This document shows positions 12,885 through 44,103 of a DNA stretch of 64,000 nt, piece after piece (the first letter of the stretch is position 1; every line of letters starts with the position of its first letter). The notes below the pieces were generated by a model. That model saw only the letters and a list, made by a program, of their open reading frames with translations, was not told the origin of the DNA and did no database searches. The DNA comes from an uncultured Chloroflexia bacterium (GTDB lineage Bacteria > Chloroflexota > Limnocylindria > Limnocylindrales > CSP1-4). The stretch spans positions 1,298,259 through 1,362,258 of the forward strand of contig CAWCIK010000006.1 in NCBI GenBank assembly GCA_963795645.1, read 5' to 3'. Made by a program: the position numbers and the translations under genes.

Positions 12885-14039
12885 ATGCTGCTGTCACAGA
12901 CGGCGACCAACGCGCTACCGATGGCGCGCAGCGGCGCCGTCATCAATCGTGTCACCGCAACCGCCTACACGATCCCGACGGACCAGCCTGAATCCGATGG
13001 CACCCTTGCCTGGGACCGGACGACGATGGTCATCACCGAGCTCGAGGCCGCGTCAACGCGCGCCATTGGATACACGTACGCCAGCCACGTCGCGGCTGCG
13101 CTCATCGTCGAGGTGCTGGCCCAGGACCTGCTCGGTGGAGATCCTTTCGACCACGCGCGACTGACGGCCGCGCTGAGCAGACGTCTGCGCAACATCGGCC
13201 GGCCAGGTATTGGTGCTACCGCTGTATCGGCGCTCGACCAGGCGCTTTGGGACCTGAAGAGCCGCATGCTGGGTCTCTCATTGGTCGACCTGCTCGGGTC
13301 CGTGCGTGACGAAGCCGCGGCCTACGGTAGTGGCGGCTTCACGTCGTACTCGAACAGCCACCTGTCCGAGCAGCTGGGCGGGTGGGCCGCCGAAGGTTTT
13401 GACATGGTCAAGATGAAGATCGGCCGCAACCCAGAGGTCGACCCCGACCGCATCCGCGAAGCCCGTTCCGCGATTGGCGACAGCGTCCAGCTGTTCGTCG
13501 ACGCCAACGGAGCGTTCGACGAGCGCGGAGCATTGGCGGCATCACGCTGGCTGGACGAGAGCTCGGTGACGTGGTTCGAGGAACCCGTTACGTCTGACGA
13601 CATTGGTGGCCTGCGTTTCGTGCGCGAGCGCGTGCCCCGTTCCATGCCAGTGGCTGCCGGCGAATACGGCTGGACGCCGATCGACTTCGTTCGCCTCGTC
13701 GATGGGGCTGCCGTCGACGTGCTCCAGGCCGATGCGACCCGATGCCTGGGGATCAGCGGCTTCCTCGATGCCGTGGCCATCTGCGCGGCCAGGGCGTTGC
13801 CCATGTCGACGCACTGCGCCCCCACCATTCACTCGAAGCTGGCATGCGTGGCAGAGCCGGTGCGTCACATTGAGTGGTTCCACGACCACGTACGCATCGA
13901 GCGTCGGTTCTTCGATGGCTTCTGCGACGCGAAAGACGGTGTCGTACGTCCGGACCGTGGACGACCAGGGATAGGCATCGAGCTGCGCCGTACCGACCTT
14001 GAGCCATACCTCGTCTGGTATGGGGAGATGACGTTGTGA
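12885..14039 (+). CDS. Enolase superfamily enzyme (mandelate racemase / muconate lactonizing enzyme family)
   Basis: KMKIGRNPEVDPDRIREARSAIGDSVQLFVDANGAF, then WFEEPV and a second metal-ligand region. ATG at 12885 chosen (the ORF track begins at a TTG at 12831). Confidence 0.8.
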   Translation: MLLSQTATNALPMARSGAVINRVTATAYTIPTDQPESDGTLAWDRTTMVITELEAASTRAIGYTYASHVAAALIVEVLAQDLLGGDPFDHARLTAALSRRLRNIGRPGIGATAVSALDQALWDLKSRMLGLSLVDLLGSVRDEAAAYGSGGFTSYSNSHLSEQLGGWAAEGFDMVKMKIGRNPEVDPDRIREARSAIGDSVQLFVDANGAFDERGALAASRWLDESSVTWFEEPVTSDDIGGLRFVRERVPRSMPVAAGEYGWTPIDFVRLVDGAAVDVLQADATRCLGISGFLDAVAICAARALPMSTHCAPTIHSKLACVAEPVRHIEWFHDHVRIERRFFDGFCDAKDGVVRPDRGRPGIGIELRRTDLEPYLVWYGEMTL

Positions 14040-17000
14040 GCCTCCATTCCGGGACGCGCGATGTCGTGCGCCAACGTCTGGATCAGGCGCCCGATTGGCT
14101 GGTGCGCGGCACGGCCGTTGGTAGCGCACTGCCGGGCGCCACGAAGCGGGAACCGCTCTCCGACGCCGCCGGACTCGCCGTCGAGCTACTCAACAACGTC
14201 CGTGGCGAGGTCCGCTTCGATCGCGGAACACGGGCTCTTTACTCGACCGACTCATCGAACTACCGCCAGGTGCCGATCGGCGTGGTGCTCCCGCGTGACA
14301 CGGACGACGTCATTGCCACGGTCGAGACGTGCCGCCGCTTTGGCGCGCCGATCCTGTCCCGCGGCGGCGGCACGAGCCTCGCTGGCCAGACGTGCAACGT
14401 CGCGGTGGTAATGGATCACTCCAAGTACAACAATGCGCTCGTCGAGCTGAACGCCTCCGAACGCTATGCGCGCGTCAGACCGGGCATCGTTCTCGATACG
14501 CTGCGCGATGCGGCCGAAGAACACCATCTGACCTTGGCCCGGACCCGGCCACCCACAACCACTGCACGCTGGGTGGGATGATCGGCAACAACTCGTGCGG
14601 CGTGCACTCGGTCATGGCCGGCAAGACCGACGACAACGTTCTCGAGCTGGACATCCTCACCTACGGCGGCCTGCGCATGACGGTCGGCCCGACAAGTGAC
14701 GACGAACTCGAGCGGATCATCACCGCAGGCGGCATCAAGGGCGAGATCTACCGCCGATGCGTGAGCTTCGCGACGGCCACGCGAACGAGATTCGACGCCG
14801 GCTACCCACCCATCCCGCGTTGCGTGTCGGGGTACAACCTGACCTGGCTGCTGCCCGAGAACGGGGCTTCAACGTGGCCCGGGCCCTCGTTGGTCGCGAG
14901 TCGACGCTCATGACCGTCCTTGAGGCAAAGGTGAGGCTCGTCGACAGCCCTCCCGGCCGGACGCTGGTCGCGCTCGGCTTCGACGATGTCTATGCGGCGG
15001 CCGACGACGTGCCCAACGTCATGGAGTCGGACTGCATAGCGTGCGAGGGCATGGACCACAAACTTGTCCGGACGTGCGCGGGCGTGGGATCCATCCCGAC
15101 GCGCTGGGCCGATGTTGCCCAGCCGGCGATGGCTTTCTGCTCGTCGAGTTCGGAGGCAGCGACCGAAAGGAAGCAGACGCCAAGGCGCACGAGTTCGTCG
15201 ACAAGATCAAGAGCCGCCGTTCGGACGGCACATACCGCGAAGTCTTCGATCGCGGAGACGAAGAAGAGCACTCTGGTCGATTCGCGAATCCGGCCTGGGC
15301 GCGACCTCGATGGTGCCGGGCAAGCCGCTCACGTTGCCAGGCTGGGAAGACTCTGCCGTGCCGCCCGAGCGGCTCGGCGACTACCTGCGCGAGTTGCGCA
15401 AGCTGTTGAACCGACTATTCGGTACGACGCGGACATGTACGGCCATTTCGGCCAGGGCGTCCTGCACTGCCGGATCGACTTCGGCCTGCTGACAGAACCC
15501 GGACTGCACAAGTTCCGCAGCTATCTGGACGAAGCCGCCGATCTCGTGGTTGACATGGGCGGCTCACTGTCCGGAGAGCACGGCGACGGCCAGGCTCGCG
15601 CCGACCTGCTGCCGATCATGTACGGCGACGAGCTCGTCGATGCGTTCGCCGAGTTCAAGTGCGATCTGGGATCCCGAGTGGCGGATGAACCCGGGCAAGG
15701 TAGTCGATCCCAACCCGATCCTGTCCGACCTGAGCCTGGGCGCGGACTACAACCCGCCGAGCGTGGCGACCCACTTCGCCTTCGCCGAGGACCACGACTC
15801 GTTTGCTCACGCGGCGTTCCGCTGCGTGGGCGTCGGCGACTGCCGCCGCCACGACGGCGGCACGATGTGCCCTCGTACATGGTTACGCGCGAGGAGAAGC
15901 ACTCGACGCGCGGCCGCGCTCGGATGCTGTTCGAAATGATGCGAGGGCGACGTAATGACCGATGGCTGGCGCTCGGACGAGGTTAAGCGAGGCGCTCGAC
16001 CTATGCCTGGCATGCAAGGGCGTGTAAGATCGAGTGCCCGGTCAACGTTGACATGGCGACGTACAAGGCCGAATTCATGAGCCACTACTGGGCCGGCCGA
16101 CTACGGCCGCGCCAGGCCTACGTCTTGGGACTCATCGCCGTGGTGGCTGCGAATCTGGGCGAGCGCATGCCGCGTCTGGCCAACCTCGCGACGCAGTTAC
16201 CCGGACTGCGCACGATGGCCAAGGCATTTCGCCGGCGTCGCGCCCGAGCGGCGCATCCCGCGCCTGGCCAGCCAGACATTCAGCGACTGGTTCGCCGAAC
16301 GTCGCAGAAACGCGCCTTCGGCGGACGCACCTGAAGGCCGGCGCGCGTGATCCTGTGGCCCGACACCTTCACCGACCATTTTCACCCCGACTCGGCGCGC
16401 TCCGCGGTCGAGGTGCTCGAGGCCGCCGGTGGCAGGTGGAGATCCCGATGGCTGGGTTTGCTGCGGCCGCCCGCTGTATGACTTCGGTTTCATCGGCCAG
16501 GCGCGCGGCCACTTGCGTCAAGAAGTCGATGCGGACGTGCTGCGCCCGGCACTGCGCGACGGCATGCCGATCGTCGGCCTCGAGCCGATCTGCGTCGCTG
16601 CGTTCCGCGACGAGCTGGTTCGAGCTCAATCCCGAACTGCCGGACGCCACGCCGGCTGCACGAAGCAGACATACCTGCTGAGCGAGTTCCTGGCCAAGGT
16701 GCGACCGGACTACCAGCCGCCGCGCCTCGAAGCCGGCAAGGCGGTCGTCCACGGCCACTGCCAGCAGAAGGCGGTGCTCGACATGGACGCCGAGATCGAC
16801 GCCTTGCGCGCGACCGGCCTGGATGTCGACGTGCTCGAGTCGGGCTGCTGCGGCATGGCCGGCAACTTCGGCTTCGAGAAGCGGCGAGAAGTACGCGCGT
16901 CTCGGTCGCGGCCGGTGAGCGCGTCCTGCTGCCCGCGGTACGCCGGGCGGACTGCCGAGACGTATGTCGTTGCCACCGGTTTCTCAGTGCCGCGAGCAGA

Positions 17001-17110
17001 TCGCCCAGCTGACCGATCGCCGCGCGATGCATCCGGCCGACCTGCTCGCTGCCGGGCTGCATGCGGCGCACCTCCGACTACCAACCCGCTGTCAATCGAA
17101 AGGAAGGTGA
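14036..17110 (+). pseudogene. FAD-linked oxidase fused to a cysteine-rich (Fe-S, CCG) domain (GlcD-GlcF/GlpC-like), disrupted by at least 12 frameshifts
   Basis: A recognisable protein can be threaded through ORF-track pieces in all three + frames: 14036, 14329, 14757, 15041, 15064, 15550, 16053, 16429. These give an FAD PCMH domain (ILSRGGGTSLAGQ), the FAD-oxidase C-terminus, and CxxCxxC/CCG motifs (CCGMAGNFGFEK ... ATGFSCREQIAQLTDRRAMHPADLL). The amino-acid sequence between the shifts looks pristine. Confidence 0.7.
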
Positions 17111-17112
17111 CC

Positions 17113-18874
17113 ATGGCCAAGACCGCAGCTGACGTGCTGATCGAGACACTGATCGACTGGGGCGTCGACACGTCTTCGGGCTGCCCGGGCGACGGCATCA
17201 ACGGGATCATGGAGTCGCTCCGGACCCACCAGGACGAGGTCCGCTTCGTCCAGGTGCGCCACGAGGAGGCCGCCGCCTTTGCGCCGCGGCCGGTATCCAA
17301 GTTCAGCGGGTCGGCTGGGCGTCTGCCTGGCAACGTCAGGCCCGGGCGGGCTGCACCTGACCAACGGCCTGTATGACGCCAAGCTCGACGGGGCGTCTGT
17401 GCTGGCGATCACCGGCCACCACTTCAGCGACCTGATCGACACTCATGCACAGCAGGACGTCGACCTGACGCGCGTGTTCGAGGATCGTCGCGGTCTACAA
17501 CACGCGGGTCATGAACTCCGCCCACGTGCCGAACGTGGCCAATCTGGCGTGTCGCACGGCGCTGGCCTGGAAGGGAGTGGCAGCACATCTGCTTCCCGAC
17601 CGACCTGCAGGAGCAGCCGGCGGATGCCGGGCCGCGCGCGCCGCGCGACAAGCGCGGCCACACGCCGACACGCTCGGCGCGCGGGCCGGCCTGCCGTCCG
17701 ACGCGGACCTGGGCCGCGCGCGGAAGTGCTGAACGCCGGCAGAAGGTCGCCATTCTCGCCGGCCAGGGCGCGCTCGGCGCCGGCTGACGAGCTCGAATGC
17801 CGTGGCCGAGGCGCTCGGGGCGCCGATCGTCAAGGCTCTGCTCGGCAAGAGCGTCGTGCCCGACGACAGCCCGCTACACGACGGGCGGCATCGGCCTGCT
17901 CGGAACGGCGCCCTCCGAGACTGCGCTGGCCGAGTGCGACACGCTGCTGATCGTCGGCAGCTCCTTTCCGTACATCGAGTTCTATCCCAAGCCGGGACCA
18001 GGCGCGTGCTGTCCAGATCGACATCGACCCCGCGCGCATCGCGCTGCGCTATCCGGTCGAGGTCGGCCTCGTCGGCGACGCGAGGGCGACCCTCGCCGCG
18101 CTGCTGCCGACGCTGCAGCGCAAGGAGGACCGCGGTTCCTGGAAAAGGCGCAGTCCGGCATGGCCGACTGGTGGAAGCTGATGGACGAGCGCGCCGCGCG
18201 CATGGACATGCCCATGAAGCCGCAGACCATCACCGCGGCGCTCGATCGGCAGCTGCGTGACGACGCGATCATCGTCTGCGACTCGGGCACCATCACGACC
18301 TGGTATCGCGCGCCATATCCGGGCGCGTCGCGGGCCAGATGATGTCTCGCTCTCGGGCACGCTGGCGACGATGGCCTGCGGGCTGCCCTACGCGGTCGGT
18401 GCCCAGATGGCGCATCCGGATCGGCAGGTCGTCGCCATCGTCGGCGACGGCGGCGCTGTCGATGCTGATGGCCGAGCTGGCGACATGCGGCCAAGTACAA
18501 GCTGCCGGTGCGCGTCATGGTCTACAAGAACGACGTGCTCGGCCAGATCAAGTGGGAGCAGATGGTCTTCCTGGGCAACCCCGAGTTCGGCGTCGAGCTC
18601 TACCCGATCGACTTCGTCAAGGTCGCCGAGGCATGCGGCGTGCGCGGCATTCGGATCGACGACCCCGAGCAGGCCGACGAGCAGCTGCGCGACGCCTTCG
18701 CGACCGAGGGCCGGTGTTGATCGAGGCCGTGATCGACGCCAACGAGGCGCCGATGCCGGGCACGATCAGGCCCAGCAGGCGATCCACTTCGCCGAGTCGC
18801 TGCTGCGCGGCCAGCCCGACCGGATCGAGATCGCCACGACCGCCGCCGGCAACAAGATCCGCGAGATGGTCTAG
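17113..18874 (+). pseudogene. Thiamine-pyrophosphate enzyme (pyruvate oxidase / PoxB-like / acetolactate-synthase-like), disrupted by at least 6 frameshifts
   Basis: N-terminal TPP pyrimidine-binding domain (MAKTAADVLIETLIDWGVD...VRHEEAAAFA), central domain, and C-terminal TPP-binding domain (GTLATMACGLPYAVGAQMAHPDRQVVAIVGDGG ... MRVMVYKNDVLGQIKWEQ) are spread over frames 17092, 17279, 17511, 17797/17802, 18257, 18339 and 18508. Confidence 0.7.
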
Positions 18875-18922: not shown

Positions 18923-19468
18923 GTGACTCAATCCGTAACCTCGGCCGAGGAGCAGGAACAAGAGCATCTCGTCCGCAAGCAGGGAGACGCATATCGCTCG
19001 TCGTATGACGAGCTGATGTCGGAGGATCGCCACGATGGAGTGGAGATCGACGACTACCTCGTGACGGCCGCGTTCGAACCCGCCGAGGGCATGTATATCG
19101 TGGCCAGCGACGGCAGGCTCATGTGGAAGGTTCCAGAGCCACATGAGAACCAACATCTTGAGGTCATTGTTCGCGATCGGCACGATGGCCGCTTTGTGCC
19201 TGGCCTCGATGTGCGCATGCTCCTGCGTAATGGATCCGACATCGTCGTCGACACCCCCGTTCCTTTCATCTGGCACCCATTCGTCTTCCACTACGGGATC
19301 AACGGCCATATACCCGAGGAGGGGTCGTACTCGGTCGAGGTGCGCATCGCCCGGCCCGTGTTCGGCCGCCACGACGAGGTTCGCGGTAGACGCTACGCGC
19401 GCGATGTACAAGTCGACCTGGGGCCACTAAAGCTGCGCCCCGGCCGAAAGGAACACGGACCTGAATGA
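18923..19468 (+). CDS. Hypothetical protein (acidic N-terminus, His-rich beta-rich core; family not recognised)
   Basis: 181-aa ORF with codon usage consistent with its neighbours; no signal peptide. Followed by a GC hairpin. Confidence 0.5.
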   Translation: MTQSVTSAEEQEQEHLVRKQGDAYRSSYDELMSEDRHDGVEIDDYLVTAAFEPAEGMYIVASDGRLMWKVPEPHENQHLEVIVRDRHDGRFVPGLDVRMLLRNGSDIVVDTPVPFIWHPFVFHYGINGHIPEEGSYSVEVRIARPVFGRHDEVRGRRYARDVQVDLGPLKLRPGRKEHGPE

Positions 19469-33153: not shown

Positions 33154-34760
33154 GTGTTCGGGCGGTGGAGGGCTATCGTTGACGCAGCCGACCAGAAACA
33201 GGGAGCCATCACGATGACCGAGATAGCGGAACGACAGATCGACATGACCGCAGCAGGGCAGGAGATGGGGCGCGTTTCGCACTGGATCGGCGGCGGCACC
33301 GTCGAGGGCACTTCGGGCCGCCACGGCCCGGTCTACAACCCGGCCACCGGCCGCCAGGAGAAGACCGTCGATTTCGCCTCGGTCGAGGAGGTAGATGCCG
33401 CCGTTGCGGCCGCGGCCGCGGCATTTCCGGCGTGGCGCGCGACCTCGCTCTCGAAGCGCACGGAGATCATGTTCCGCGTCCGCAACCTGGTCGATCAGCA
33501 TCGCGCACGGAGATCGCGTGCTTCCTCACCGCCGAGCACGGCAAGGTCCCCTCCGACGCGCTCGGGCGAGGTCGCCCGCGGCCTCGAGAACCTGGAGTTC
33601 GCGACCGGCATCCCGAACCTGCTGAAGGGCGGCTACAGCGAGCAGGTCAGTGGCGGCATCGACGTCTACCAGATCCGCCAGCCGCTCGGCGTCGTGGCCG
33701 GCATCACGCCCTTCAACTTCCCGGCGATGGTGCCCATGTGGATGTTCGCCAACGCCATCGCGTGCGGCAACTGCTTCATCCTCAAGCCATCCGAGAAGGA
33801 TCCATCGGCTTCGATCTACATGGCCCAGCTGCTCGCCGAGGCGGGCGTGCCCGACGGCGTCTTCAGCGTCGTCCAGGGCGACAAGGTGGCGGTTGATCGG
33901 ATCCTCGAGCACCCGGACATCAAGGCCGTCTCGTTCGTGGGCTCCACGCCCATCGCCAAGTACATCTACGAGACGGGCACGCGCAACGGCAAGCGCGTCC
34001 AGGCCCTGGGCGGTGCCAAGAACCACATGATCGTGCTGCCCGACGCGGACATCGACATGGCCGCTGACGCAGCGGTGTCGCGCCGCGTACGGCTCGTCCG
34101 GCGAGCGCTGCATGGCGGTGTCGGTCGTCGTCGCGGTGGGCGATGTCGGCGATCCGCTCGTGGCCGCGATCAAGGAGCGCCTGCCCAGGATCAAGGTCGG
34201 ACCGGGCTCGGACGCGGCATCGGAGATGGGGCCGCTCGTGACGCGCGAGCACCGCGACAAGGTCGCCTCATATCTCGACAAGGCCGCCGACGCGGGCGCA
34301 ACTGTCGTCACCGACGGCCGCGAGGCACCGATCTACGGCGAGGACGGCTTCTTCCTGGGCGTGTCGCTGATCGACAACGTGCAGCCCGACCACGAGTCGT
34401 ACCGCAACGAGATCTTCGGCCCGGTGCTGGAGGTCATGCGCGTCGCGACGTACGACGATGCCGTGAAGCTGGTCAACGACAACCCGTACGGCAACGGCAC
34501 GGCGATCTTCACCCGCGACGGCGGCGCCGCGCGCCAGTTCCAGTTCGAGGTCGCAGGCGGGCATGGTCGGCATCAACGTGCCCATACCCGTGCCGGTCGC
34601 GTACTACAGCTTCGGTGGCTGGAAGGACTCGCTCTTCGGCGACGTGAACATGTACGGCCCGGAGGGCATCCAGTTCTACACGCGCTCGAAGGTCGTCACC
34701 GCGCGCTGGCCCGACCCCGGCACGTCCAAGGTCGACCTCGGCTTTCCGCGCACTCGCTGA
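33154..34760 (+). pseudogene. mmsA: Methylmalonate-semialdehyde dehydrogenase (CoA-acylating) with 4 frameshifts
   Basis: Canonical MmsA sequence (HWIGGG...[58 protein letters not shown]) must be read through frames 33154, 33432, 33154, 34112 and 34563. The first two single-base shifts (about 33510 and 33560) compensate each other within 50 nt. Confidence 0.75.
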
Positions 34761-41750: not shown

Positions 41751-43152
41751 TCAGACGAGGTACTCGCGAGCCGTCTTGCGGCGCAGGAACTGACCCCAGC
41801 CCTTCTCGCCCTTCCACTCTCCGTCGCGGACGATCACACGGCCGCGAGACATGACCACGTCCGAGCCACCCACCACAGAGCGACCCTCGTAGCACGAATA
41901 GTCGACGTCCATGTGGTGCGTCGAAGCCGAGATCGTGTGGCGTCGCGCCGGATCGTAGACCACGATGTCGGCATCTGCGCCAGGGGCGACCACGCCCTTG
42001 CGGCCGGCGAGCCCGAACATCCGAGCCGGCGCGGCGGAGATGACCTCCACCCACCGCTCGGGCGTCATCTGGCCGCTAACGACGCCACCGTCGTGCATCA
42101 GGTCGACGCGGTCCTCGACGCCCGGGAGGCCGTTGGGGACCTTGCGGAAATCGCCCACGCCCAGGTCCTTCTGGCCGTGGAAGTCGAACGGGCAGTGGTC
42201 GGTCGAGACGATCTGCAGGTCGTCCTTCAGGAGGCCCTGCCAGAGCGGCTCCCAGTGGTCCTTCGGCCGCAGCGGCGGCGAGCAGATGAACTTGGCCCCC
42301 TCGAAGCCGTTGCCCATGTCGTCGAGCGACAGGAACAGGTACTGCGGGCACGTCTCGGCAAAGGCCATCGAGCCGCGGTCGCGGGCGCCGCGAACGGCAT
42401 CGAGGGCGTCGCGCGCGCGACAGGTGGACGATGTAGACCGGCACGTGCGCCGCCTCTGCGAGGCGGATGACGCGGTTCGTGGCCTCGCCCTCGAAGACCG
42501 GGTAGCGCGCGACGCCGTGCCAGTACGGATCGGTCTTGCCCTCGTCGACCAGCTCGGCCGCGACGACGTCGATGGCCATGCCGTTCTCGGCGTGCATCAT
42601 GATCAGGCCGCCGTTCTTGTCGGTCTGCTGCATGGCCCGGAAGATGGCCCCGTCGTCGCTCAGGAAGACGCCCGGGTAGGCGGTGAAGAGCTTGAAGTCG
42701 GTGATGCCCTCGTTGACCAGCTCGTCCATCTCGGCCAGCGAGCCGGGCGTGACGTCCGACATGATCATGTGGAAGCCGTAGTCGACGGTCGCGTTGCCTT
42801 CCGCCTTGGCCATCCACGTGTCGAGCCCCTCGCGCAGCGACTTGCCCTTCGACTGGACGGCAAAGTCGAGGATCGTCGTCGTGCCGCCGAACGCGGCCGC
42901 GCGAGTGCCGGTCTCGAACGTGTCCTTGGCGAAGGTGCCGCCGAAGGGCAGCTCCATGTGCGTGTGGACGTCGATCGCGCCCGGGATCACGTACTTGCCC
43001 GACGCATCGATGGTCTCGTCGAGACCGGCGCCCAGGTCGGTTCCGGAGAGCCCACGCCCGACAGCCACGATCTGCTCGCCATCGACCAGGACGTCAGCCT
43101 GCGTCGATCCGTCGGCGTTGACGACGGTGCCGTTCGCAATGAGTGTTCGCAT
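41751..43152 (-). pseudogene. Dihydropyrimidinase / D-hydantoinase with a single frameshift in a (GC)5 tract
   Basis: ORFs 42076..43428 (true start MRTLIANGTVV at 43152; DVHTHMELPFGG; FKLFTAYPG; VYIVHLS) and 41751..42368 (MAFAETCPQYLFL...STDHCPF...) are the same 467-aa enzyme. They are joined by a 1-nt shift inside GTCGCGCGCGCGAC near 42412-42421. Confidence 0.8.
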
Positions 43153-43187
43153 GCTGCGAATGTAACGCGCCGGGGAAAGAGGCTCTA

Positions 43188-44103
43188 CTACGGCGTTGCG
43201 ATCTCGTAGGCGATCGTGATCTTGGCCTTGATCGGGTCCGGTTGTTGGCAGGCATCCGGCTGGGTTGGGTCGCCGGCGCAACTGATGGCGAACGACAGGA
43301 CCGAGCCGGACTTGGCGTACTTGATCGGGTTGAACTTGACCGTCACCGGATCGCCGCAAATGGTCGGGTACGTGCAGGTCATCGAGGCGATCTTCTTGCC
43401 GTCCAGCTCGAGGAACACCTTGCCCCACGTCGAGTCAGGGAAGATCTGGAACGTGGCCTTGTCGAGGCACCAGCCGTCACTGGTGGTCTGCGTCTGCAGG
43501 TATCCGATCTCGGCGGAGCCCGTTGCGTGACCGGTTGCTGTTGCGCACGGACCGGGGGTTGGCGTGGGGGTCGGGGTCGGTGTTGGCGTCGGGGTCGGTG
43601 TTGGGCGTCGGCTTCTTGGTCGGCGTGGGGGTCGGCTTGTGGGTCGGAGTGGCGGTCGGCGTTGTCGATGGTGTGGGTGTGGGCGAGCCTGGCAGCAGCG
43701 AATCGGTCGGAATCGGGGTCAGGAACGGCGTGTCCGACGGGAAGGGCGTGGGCAGCGGTGGGAACGACTCGGGTGGCGCGGCAGTCGGCGTCGGCGTCAG
43801 ATCGGGCGTCGGCGTCGTCTGGACGAAGACCGGCAGCGATGACTCGGGGGTGCCGGTGGCCGTGGCCACGTTCTGGCCGCCGCCGGGGCGCGCGAAGGCG
43901 ACGAGCATCGCGCCCACGATCAGGCCGGTCAGGGCGAGGGCGAGCGCGGCAATGATCGGCAGCCGACCACCGCCCGTCGACGCCGCCCGTCGCCTGGGAT
44001 ATGTGACGCCGGCCGCTAGCCCGGCGACCGGCAGGCGCTGGTGGCAGCGTCGGCAGAAGGTCGCCCGAGTCGAGTTGCTGGCGCCGCAATTGGGGCAGAT
44101 CAA
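43188..44103 (-). pseudogene. Zn-ribbon / TM / Pro-Thr-linker / C-terminal beta-domain protein (paralog 1), frameshifted inside the PT-linker
   Basis: TTG start; MICPNCG...CRRC zinc ribbon; one TM helix; PT-rich linker. The C-terminal domain (ORF 43188..43418 frame, open upstream through TPTPTPGP) is in a different frame from the N-terminal part (ORF 43477..44103); the junction is near 43600. Confidence 0.6.

Follow-up and report, generated by a model that had tools for sequence, protein, structure and literature searches.

A cluster of frameshifts in adjacent FAD/Fe-S oxidoreductase and thiamine-pyrophosphate enzyme genes of a Chloroflexia contig probably reflects consensus error

Introduction

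Long-read metagenome-assembled genomes (MAGs), in particular those built from Nanopore reads only or at low coverage, carry residual indels that appear as frameshifts in conserved genes, leave no stop codons once corrected, break genes into fragment ORFs and recur sporadically elsewhere in the sequence (PMC9262707, PMC12313526). Frameshifting indels persist in bins below 40x (PMC9262707), and the MFD MAGs were produced by metaFlye assembly followed by one Medaka round (PMC12313526). The fragmentation of gene calls by indels in long-read MAGs is what IDEEL-type tests measure. Multiple frameshifts in formerly functional genes with intact neighbours are also the mark of reductive decay of the Mycobacterium leprae type. 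Indel spectra in bacteria are biased to deletions, and the events prefer runs of identical bases.

A pair of adjacent, frame-disrupted genes was investigated in a window of 64,000 nucleotides (the whole stretch of DNA that was analysed) from an uncultured Chloroflexia bacterium. The source is probably a long-read metagenome-assembled genome of a novel lineage. The disrupted stretch shares with residual long-read error the frameshifts in conserved genes, the lack of stops once corrected, the fragment ORFs and the sporadic shifts elsewhere, and homologues of its genes in MFD Nanopore MAGs are frame-split in the same way. It differs from the known errors of such genomes in that the shifts are tightly clustered, at ~1.4 per 100 nt across 4.2 kb compared with ~1 per 20 kb elsewhere, and in that most are not in homopolymers, on which the literature places its emphasis. 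The likeness to M. leprae-type decay extends to the multiple frameshifts and the intact neighbours, but not to stop codons, a rise in dN/dS, an excess of amino acid changes, a deletion bias or larger deletions, none of which is seen here.

The encoded enzymes resemble two from Escherichia coli. The corrected product of the thiamine-pyrophosphate (TPP) gene aligns end to end with the family of the pyruvate oxidase PoxB, and the model of the YdiJ-type FAD/Fe-S 2-hydroxyacid dehydrogenases matches both the FAD and the Fe-S parts of the other product; both scores fall below the NCBIfam equivalog cutoffs. The genomic context differs from that of PoxB and YdiJ, as both genes form a conserved trio here with the gene for an MR_MLE enzyme.

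Results

The first gene of this conserved cluster (12885-14039, forward strand) encodes an enolase-superfamily protein with the Pfam domains MR_MLE_N and MR_MLE_C. It is intact, with no frameshifts relative to its homologue in the related locus L001, and was used as an internal control; its exact 384-aa product is present in the public protein collection. The second gene (14036-17110, forward strand) encodes a YdiJ-like fusion of an FAD-binding oxidase and an Fe-S (CCG) oxidoreductase of ~1,000 aa, with 77% amino acid identity to P0001 of L001, and its stop codon is displaced by the last indel of the gene, at 17107. PF01565, PF02913, PF13183, PF13534 and PF02754 are found in its homologues, and the architecture of FAD_binding_4, FAD-oxidase_C and Fe-S/CCG domains is common to all of the top ones. 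The NCBIfam YdiJ model scored 494.5 bits on the corrected product, below its cutoff of 1350. The third gene (17113-18874, forward strand) encodes a PoxB/pyruvate-oxidase-like TPP enzyme with 93% amino acid identity to the L001 protein P0142. Its product, once 18 net frame changes and several compensated indel pairs are corrected, is exactly 584 aa long, and its best match among solved structures is E. coli PoxB (3EY9, E=8.6e-110). The NCBIfam model PRK08273 covered this product at full length (1-582 of 584) with 637.6 bits, below its cutoff of 724, and the product is also under the cutoffs of all pyruvate oxidase and dehydrogenase models. The trio of MR_MLE, FAD/Fe-S and TPP genes is conserved as a module in 37 of 81 loci; a profile search of genome contigs with the MR_MLE alignment returned 80 relatives, and L001 was not among them.

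The shifts were mapped by aligning the intact, syntenic L001 proteins to the DNA with a purpose-written, frameshift-aware dynamic-programming aligner. Plain tblastn was unsuited to this because GC-rich sequence remains open when read out of frame and yields long false HSPs. The FAD/Fe-S gene was found to contain 26 net frame changes and the TPP gene 18, which sum to 44 (40-44 under a raised frameshift penalty). They run in mixed directions (+1, +2, -1 and -2), from 14534 to 18768, with a spacing of 13 nt at minimum, 76 nt at the median and 248 nt at maximum. The same aligner reported no frameshifts in the upstream MR_MLE gene or in three intact loci. L001 encodes both proteins intact, and the comparison with this related genome confirmed the original prediction that the genes at 14036-18874 can only be read by hopping between frames, although the estimate of about 18 frameshifts proved too low.

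Base-level alignment gave ~60 mostly single-base indels across 14534-18768, or ~1.4 per 100 nt, including compensated pairs that the protein alignment scores as mismatches. When 15900-18874 was aligned as DNA, 62 indel events were counted, 54 of them single-base. The indel-rich stretch runs from ~500 nt into the FAD gene to ~100 nt short of the TPP stop codon, and its 4.2 kb contain at least 44 shifts, compared with ~3 in the remaining ~59 kb of the window. A search for repeats that flank 14534-18768, or for a mobile element at its borders, found none, and no compositional break was seen there.

The corrected frames contain no in-frame stop in ~1,560 codons of the two genes, as originally predicted, and residues of the diagnostic motifs are likewise kept: MRVMVYKNDVLGQIKWEQMVFLGNPEFGVELYPIDFV, encoded at 18508-18618, is the same as in L001 but for one V/I change. 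Relative to L001, dN/dS is 0.23 for the FAD gene and 0.13 for the TPP gene, compared with 0.32 for the intact neighbour, and 143 of 195 substitutions (73%) fall at codon position 3. Relative-rate tests with eight outgroups for each gene gave 9 amino acid changes unique to the window and 17 unique to L001 for the TPP protein, and 46 and 63, respectively, for the FAD protein; an excess on the window branch was therefore not found in either. Relaxed constraint, sought in both genes as raised dN/dS, lineage-specific replacements or stops, was not detected. The underlying coding sequence of both genes keeps an intact selective signature. The argument that these are not old pseudogenes is borne out by the dN/dS values of 0.13-0.23, by the share of substitutions at position 3, and by the lack of stops and of excess amino acid change.

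Single-base events make up 87% of the indels (54/62), with 34 insertions to 20 deletions. The largest deletion is 4 nt, and the inserted bases track base composition. Only five of the 54 single-base indels lie within runs of three or more, and 38 touch no identical base, so the suggestion that the shifts might fall in homopolymers did not survive; a homopolymer origin was rejected on the same count. No common sequence context was found across the shift sites. The ratio of indels to substitutions is 62:281, and the indels are placed independently of the substitution sites (0.14 vs 0.16). A biological indel spectrum was tested for by deletion bias, size range and preference for runs, and the events conformed to none of these. 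The spectrum is unlike that of bacterial mutation, and the position of the indels outside homopolymers speaks for random error, as in raw reads, over systematic error in homopolymers.

The remainder of the window was surveyed with a codon-usage Viterbi frame plot, after an ORF filter on third-codon-position GC (GC3) had proved too strict. An aldehyde dehydrogenase gene (33307-34760, forward strand) is interrupted by two isolated frameshifts, at about 34080 and about 34550: positions 4-260, 259-416 and 412-461 of the Pfam Aldedh profile each match in a different frame, and the plot changes frame at 34079 and 34551 with no stop. An amidohydrolase gene (41751-43428, reverse strand) contains one, between 42284 and 42571; here, positions 1-161 and 222-336 of Amidohydro_1 are split over two overlapping ORFs in different frames, and the plot switches at ~42411. 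At least three isolated frameshifts are thus present outside the hotspot, ~1 per 20 kb. The claim that the neighbouring genes are intact is therefore only partly right: it holds for the MR_MLE gene, but the aldehyde dehydrogenase is spread over three frames and the amidohydrolase over two, and the BMC region is not all intact.

The shifts are present in the contig of 1,507,431 bp deposited in NCBI and ENA, the proteins of which are mostly singleton clusters. The expectation that annotation pipelines would fragment the two genes has already come true, as the fragment ORFs 14036-14581 and 16429-17376 are singleton entries from this contig in the public protein collection. The latter ORF is a chimera of the out-of-frame tail of the FAD gene and the head of the TPP gene.

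L001 and many of the related loci are from Flye-named MFD Nanopore MAGs. The Nanopore-only MFD MAG loci contained 7 frame-split homologues among 63 genes, and other assemblies none among 119 (Fisher p=4.7e-4); the split MFD homologues likewise contain no stops. The indel density of the hotspot is ~10x that of other frame-split MAG loci (L078 and L028) and ~200x that of the rest of the window.

Discussion

Genes that are riddled with indels but whose proteins still look fully selected point to a poorly supported stretch of assembly, and not to a biological feature. The frameshifts are very probably consensus errors in such a stretch of a long-read metagenome assembly. Both genes would then be functional in the organism, and the frameshifts would exist only in the deposited assembly. 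The ~4.2 kb between 14534 and 18768 may have had very poor read support or have escaped polishing, in which case the consensus would have kept raw-read-like random single-base indels at ~1.4 per 100 nt, and the rest of the contig would hold only sporadic residual indels (~1 per 20 kb). Candidate local causes are a drop in coverage, one bridging read (the stretch being about a read length) or a failure of polishing at a segment shared with another population. Several observations count against consensus error: the excess density of the hotspot requires a special local cause; classical Nanopore errors are concentrated in homopolymers, which these are not; and no second, unbroken version of the genes from this organism was found in the protein collection (best TPP match, 93%). 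A closer intact relative was not found there either (best matches, 93% for TPP and 69-77% for FAD). Of the two options in the original prediction, an artefact and a burst of very recent indels, the artefact is favoured by the indel spectrum, the shifts elsewhere in the window and the frame splits confined to Nanopore-only MAGs, and the recent burst is unlikely.

Supposing an artefact, its local cause could be that the FAD C-terminal/TPP region was horizontally transferred among co-occurring populations and was handled by the assembler or polisher as an inter-genome repeat, with multi-mapping or mixed reads and a corrupted consensus as the result. This reading, a sub-hypothesis of consensus error, is possible but doubtful. 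The flanking cyclase and MR_MLE genes are only 50-55% identical to L001, and identity climbs through the FAD gene to 93% (amino acid) and 90-96% (nucleotide) in the TPP gene, while dS relative to L001 drops from ~1.2 to 0.15. Relative to a second locus, L003, the identities of the three genes are 59/62/70% with L001 protein queries and 57/63/71% with window queries, which makes the similarity to L001 specific to the FAD/TPP segment. The homology to L001 stops at the TPP stop codon, near the last indel, and indels are sparsest at the FAD N-terminus, which is also the part least similar to L001. However, the indels are not enriched beside sites that differ from L001 (0.14 vs 0.16), the most L001-like part (18490-18705) contains none, and a second near-identical copy was not found in the protein collection. 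A mixed-haplotype signature, with indels beside SNP sites, was considered separately and not seen. A chimeric contig, in which two genomes were joined via the shared segment by few supporting reads, would account for the end of L001 synteny exactly after the TPP gene and for the slightly lower GC to the left of the stretch (0.66-0.67 vs 0.68-0.69). It is nevertheless very unlikely: all 7-kb chunks resemble one another in tetranucleotide profile (correlations of 0.95-0.98), with no division between left and right, and codon usage is similar on both sides. With no compositional break, a chimeric join was rejected.

If the ~60 single-base indels were real, and too recent for substitutions to have accumulated, the genes would be genuine, very recent pseudogenes. 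Their reading frames are indeed disrupted in the deposited sequence by 44 net frameshifts; the genes are adjacent and belong to one pathway, the stretch begins and ends within the pair, and further genes in the window are disrupted, as in a decaying genome. This account is nonetheless improbable. Some 60 neutral indels predict several hundred neutral substitutions, but the window branch has fewer amino acid changes than that of L001 and dN/dS is still 0.13-0.23; the events lack a deletion bias and larger deletions and fall mostly outside runs; and the partner MR_MLE gene is intact. A single frameshift inactivates a gene, and 44 in 4.2 kb compared with ~3 in 59 kb would need a local, indel-only mutator. 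It is extremely unlikely that a horizontally shared 4.2-kb segment was hit by a very recent, strictly local burst that brought in ~60 single-base indels outside homopolymers and hardly any substitutions; were this so, it would imply a mutagenic process specific to indels, such as error-prone synthesis linked to the integration or recombination of foreign DNA. The idea that the genes are decoded in spite of the shifts, whether through programmed ribosomal frameshifting or through insertion/deletion editing of the transcript, has a vanishingly small probability and is already effectively refuted. Its sole support is the perfect preservation of the underlying coding signal, while the 44 shifts run in both directions, lie as little as 13 nt apart and share no context, and in relatives a single frame encodes these proteins. 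Programmed frameshifting would involve a single shift or very few, at a conserved slippery or stimulatory motif shared with relatives, and this pattern was not found. To our knowledge, no bacterial system recodes shifts on such a scale.

The frameshift cluster is very probably not a biological feature, and its significance lies mainly in data quality: a deposited contig of 1.5 Mb contains a 4.2-kb stretch with ~1.4% indel error, and junk ORFs from this stretch are already singleton cluster representatives in public protein collections. On this reading, errors in long-read MAGs can cluster strongly and lie away from homopolymers, beyond the reach of homopolymer-aware fixes. Should the indels prove real, which the evidence speaks against, a local indel mutator of a new kind would be implied. 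As the sequence stands, pseudogene counts, inference of pathway loss and the building of protein families from this genome would mislead, and the organism would falsely seem to lack the conserved enolase-superfamily/FAD-Fe-S/TPP enzyme module.

Frame disruption in the FAD/Fe-S and TPP genes

There is no long open reading frame on the plus strand between 14036 and 18874; many overlapping open stretches are spread across all three frames. A hand-stitched translation, used as a query, retrieved only FAD-binding/Fe-S fusion proteins of approximately 1,000 amino acids. The top match (P0001; 69% identity to the stitched query) belongs to the syntenic relative L001 (ENA ERZ25039549, contig_10986, 1.79 Mb), in which intact genes encode an MR_MLE protein, a 1,004-amino acid FAD/Fe-S protein and a 584-amino acid TPP enzyme. 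The gene order in the window is identical: MR_MLE (12885-14039), FAD/Fe-S (14036-17110) and TPP (17113-18874), all on the plus strand.

Out-of-frame GC-rich sequence stays open, and the shifts were therefore counted using a purpose-written protein-to-DNA aligner with explicit frameshift states, instead of plain tblastn, with the L001 proteins as reference. The FAD/Fe-S gene required 26 net frame changes and the TPP gene 18 (44 in total); they run from 14534 to 18768 at intervals of 13 to 248 nt (median 76 nt). None of the corrected blocks of either gene contained a stop codon, and identity to L001 after correction was 77% (FAD) and 93% (TPP). The count remained at 40-44 when the frameshift penalty was nearly doubled, and the upstream MR_MLE gene and three intact related loci, put through the same aligner, yielded no shifts. 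Nucleotide alignment of 15900-18874, a region with 85-96% identity to L001, revealed 62 indel events, including compensated pairs that appear as short mismatched patches in the protein alignment (e.g., DTSSGCPG vs DTIFGLPG). Overall, there are 44 net shifts and approximately 60 indels within 4.2 kb. The original observation of frame hopping across both genes with no in-frame stops was therefore correct, although its figure of about 18 frameshifts was an undercount.

Selection beneath the frameshifts

Codon alignments with L001, built on the corrected frames, gave dN/dS values of 0.23 (FAD) and 0.13 (TPP), and 0.32 for the intact MR_MLE neighbor. Across the best-aligned 2.3 kb, 143 of the 195 substitutions relative to L001 are at codon position 3. 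In a relative-rate test with eight outgroups per gene, TPP had 9 window-unique and 17 L001-unique changes, and FAD 46 and 63, respectively, so the window lineage shows no acceleration; four of the nine window-unique TPP changes sit within two compensated-frameshift patches. Three independent measures (dN/dS, codon position and relative rate) thus support the earlier description of the encoded sequence as pristine. An old pseudogene, which had been argued against from the sequence alone, is excluded.

Indel spectrum

In bacteria, spontaneous indels arise several-fold to tens-of-fold less often than substitutions, and are concentrated in runs, deletion-biased and varied in size. None of these features was seen in the nucleotide alignment of 15900-18874. 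The ratio of indels to substitutions relative to L001 is 62:281; single-base events account for 54 of the 62 (34 insertions and 20 deletions), and the largest event is 4 nt. The earlier suggestion that several shifts fall in homopolymers was not supported: runs of at least three hold only five of the 54 single-base events, and in 38 the indel base is unlike both of its neighbors. The inserted bases (23 G/C and 11 A/T) follow base composition, and the indels are spread over all codon positions. There was no enrichment of indels beside positions at which the window and L001 differ (0.14 vs 0.16), a negative result for a mixed-haplotype consensus.

The deposited assembly and its technology

Two fragment ORFs (14036-14581 and 16429-17376) are singleton cluster representatives in a public protein collection, and both are on the same 1,507,431-bp NCBI/ENA contig as intact window genes. 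The shifts are therefore present in the deposited assembly, and the anticipated fragmentation of these genes by annotation pipelines has occurred. The plus-strand ORF at 16429-17376 (315 amino acids) is a chimera of the out-of-frame FAD gene tail and the in-frame TPP gene head, and with its singleton entry the frameshifts have polluted the database.

The GC content of the window is approximately 68%, with no break in composition around the indel-rich stretch; neither flanking repeats around it nor a compositional sign of a chimeric join was found. Elsewhere in the window, a codon-usage Viterbi frame plot showed that nearly all coding segments close at a stop codon, with two exceptions confirmed by Pfam. 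An aldehyde dehydrogenase gene (33307-34760, plus strand) is split across three frames, which cover profile positions 4-260, 259-416 and 412-461, with frameshifts near 34080 and 34550; it falls within a region originally called intact BMC genes. An amidohydrolase gene (41751-43428, minus strand) is read in two frames, as overlapping ORFs (profile positions 1-161 and 222-336), with one frameshift between 42284 and 42571. The claim that neighboring genes are intact thus holds only in part. The contig background is approximately one frameshift per 20 kb, and the indel-rich stretch is approximately 200 times worse.

A genome scan with the MR_MLE protein yielded 80 loci, 29 of which belong to the Microflora Danica set of long-read MAGs. 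These MAGs are Nanopore-only metaFlye assemblies with a single round of Medaka polishing (PMC12313526), and the same group has reported that bins below approximately 40x retain frameshifting indels (PMC9262707). Homologs of the three genes were frame-split in 7 of 63 genes in the Microflora Danica loci vs 0 of 119 in all other assemblies (Fisher p=4.7e-4). Seven shifts were found across the FAD and TPP genes of locus L078 (8100-14100) and four in the TPP gene of locus L028 (7900-9900), in both cases with no stops. Three features suggest that the window is also from a MAG of this kind: how long its contig is, how novel its proteins are, and the record style of its closest relative.

A segment of high similarity to L001

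The indel-rich stretch lies where the window is unusually similar to L001. Identity to L001 is 50-55% in the flanking genes (cyclase 50% and MR_MLE 55% at the amino acid level), nucleotide identity climbs from 73% to 88% along the FAD gene and from 86% to 96% along the TPP gene (93% at the amino acid level), and dS drops from approximately 1.2 in MR_MLE to 0.15 in TPP (window 12885-18874 vs L001 6793-12772). Homology to L001 stops at the TPP stop codon. L003, a third genome, lacks this jump: identities for the three genes were 59, 62 and 70% with the L001 proteins as query, and 57, 63 and 71% with the window's own sequences. Because similarity to L001 peaks there while L003 shows no jump, the sequence comparison suggests that two otherwise distant lineages recently exchanged the FAD C-terminal/TPP segment, by horizontal transfer or recombination. 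Across the three genes, the similarity to L001 increases continuously, as a gradient rather than a step. The 181-amino acid ORF directly downstream of the TPP gene (18923-19468, plus strand) has no Pfam match; L001 synteny ends at this ORF, and L001 has a glycogen-debranching-type gene at that place.

This similarity is the main lead as to why the indels are so local. An exchanged segment may be handled as a repeat shared between genomes when reads are assembled or polished; alternatively, it may be carried by only part of the population, leading to thin coverage. The 4.2 kb of the indel-rich stretch would be about the length of one read.

The three-gene module and the origin of the frameshifts

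The corrected TPP product is exactly 584 amino acids, as in nearly all homologs, and is nearest to E. coli PoxB (3EY9) and pyruvate oxidases, scoring below all NCBIfam equivalog cutoffs. The FAD/Fe-S product is YdiJ-like, also scoring below the cutoff. In 37 of 81 loci (e.g., L023 8164-14005 and L077 8192-14099), genes for an FAD/Fe-S oxidoreductase of approximately 1,000 amino acids, a TPP enzyme and an MR_MLE enolase-superfamily enzyme are clustered within a few kb. These loci span Acidobacteriota, Actinomycetota, Chloroflexota, Gemmatimonadota, Myxococcota, Proteobacteria and Verrucomicrobiota, and the clustering argues that the three act together. The usual order is TPP, MR_MLE, FAD; in the window and L001 it is MR_MLE, FAD, TPP. 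By identity, the TPP partners form two classes (approximately 43-47% and 56-65%). The pathway appears to be uncharacterized.

As the module is conserved, an intact MR_MLE gene beside two destroyed partners is an unlikely biological state. Genuine recent pseudogenes are improbable, as they would need an unknown local indel-only mutator, and recoding or editing is effectively excluded. Very probably, the frameshifts are consensus errors, introduced where a long-read metagenome assembly had poor support. The frame disruption would then not be a real feature of the organism's biology, and the case is a useful but ordinary data-quality warning.
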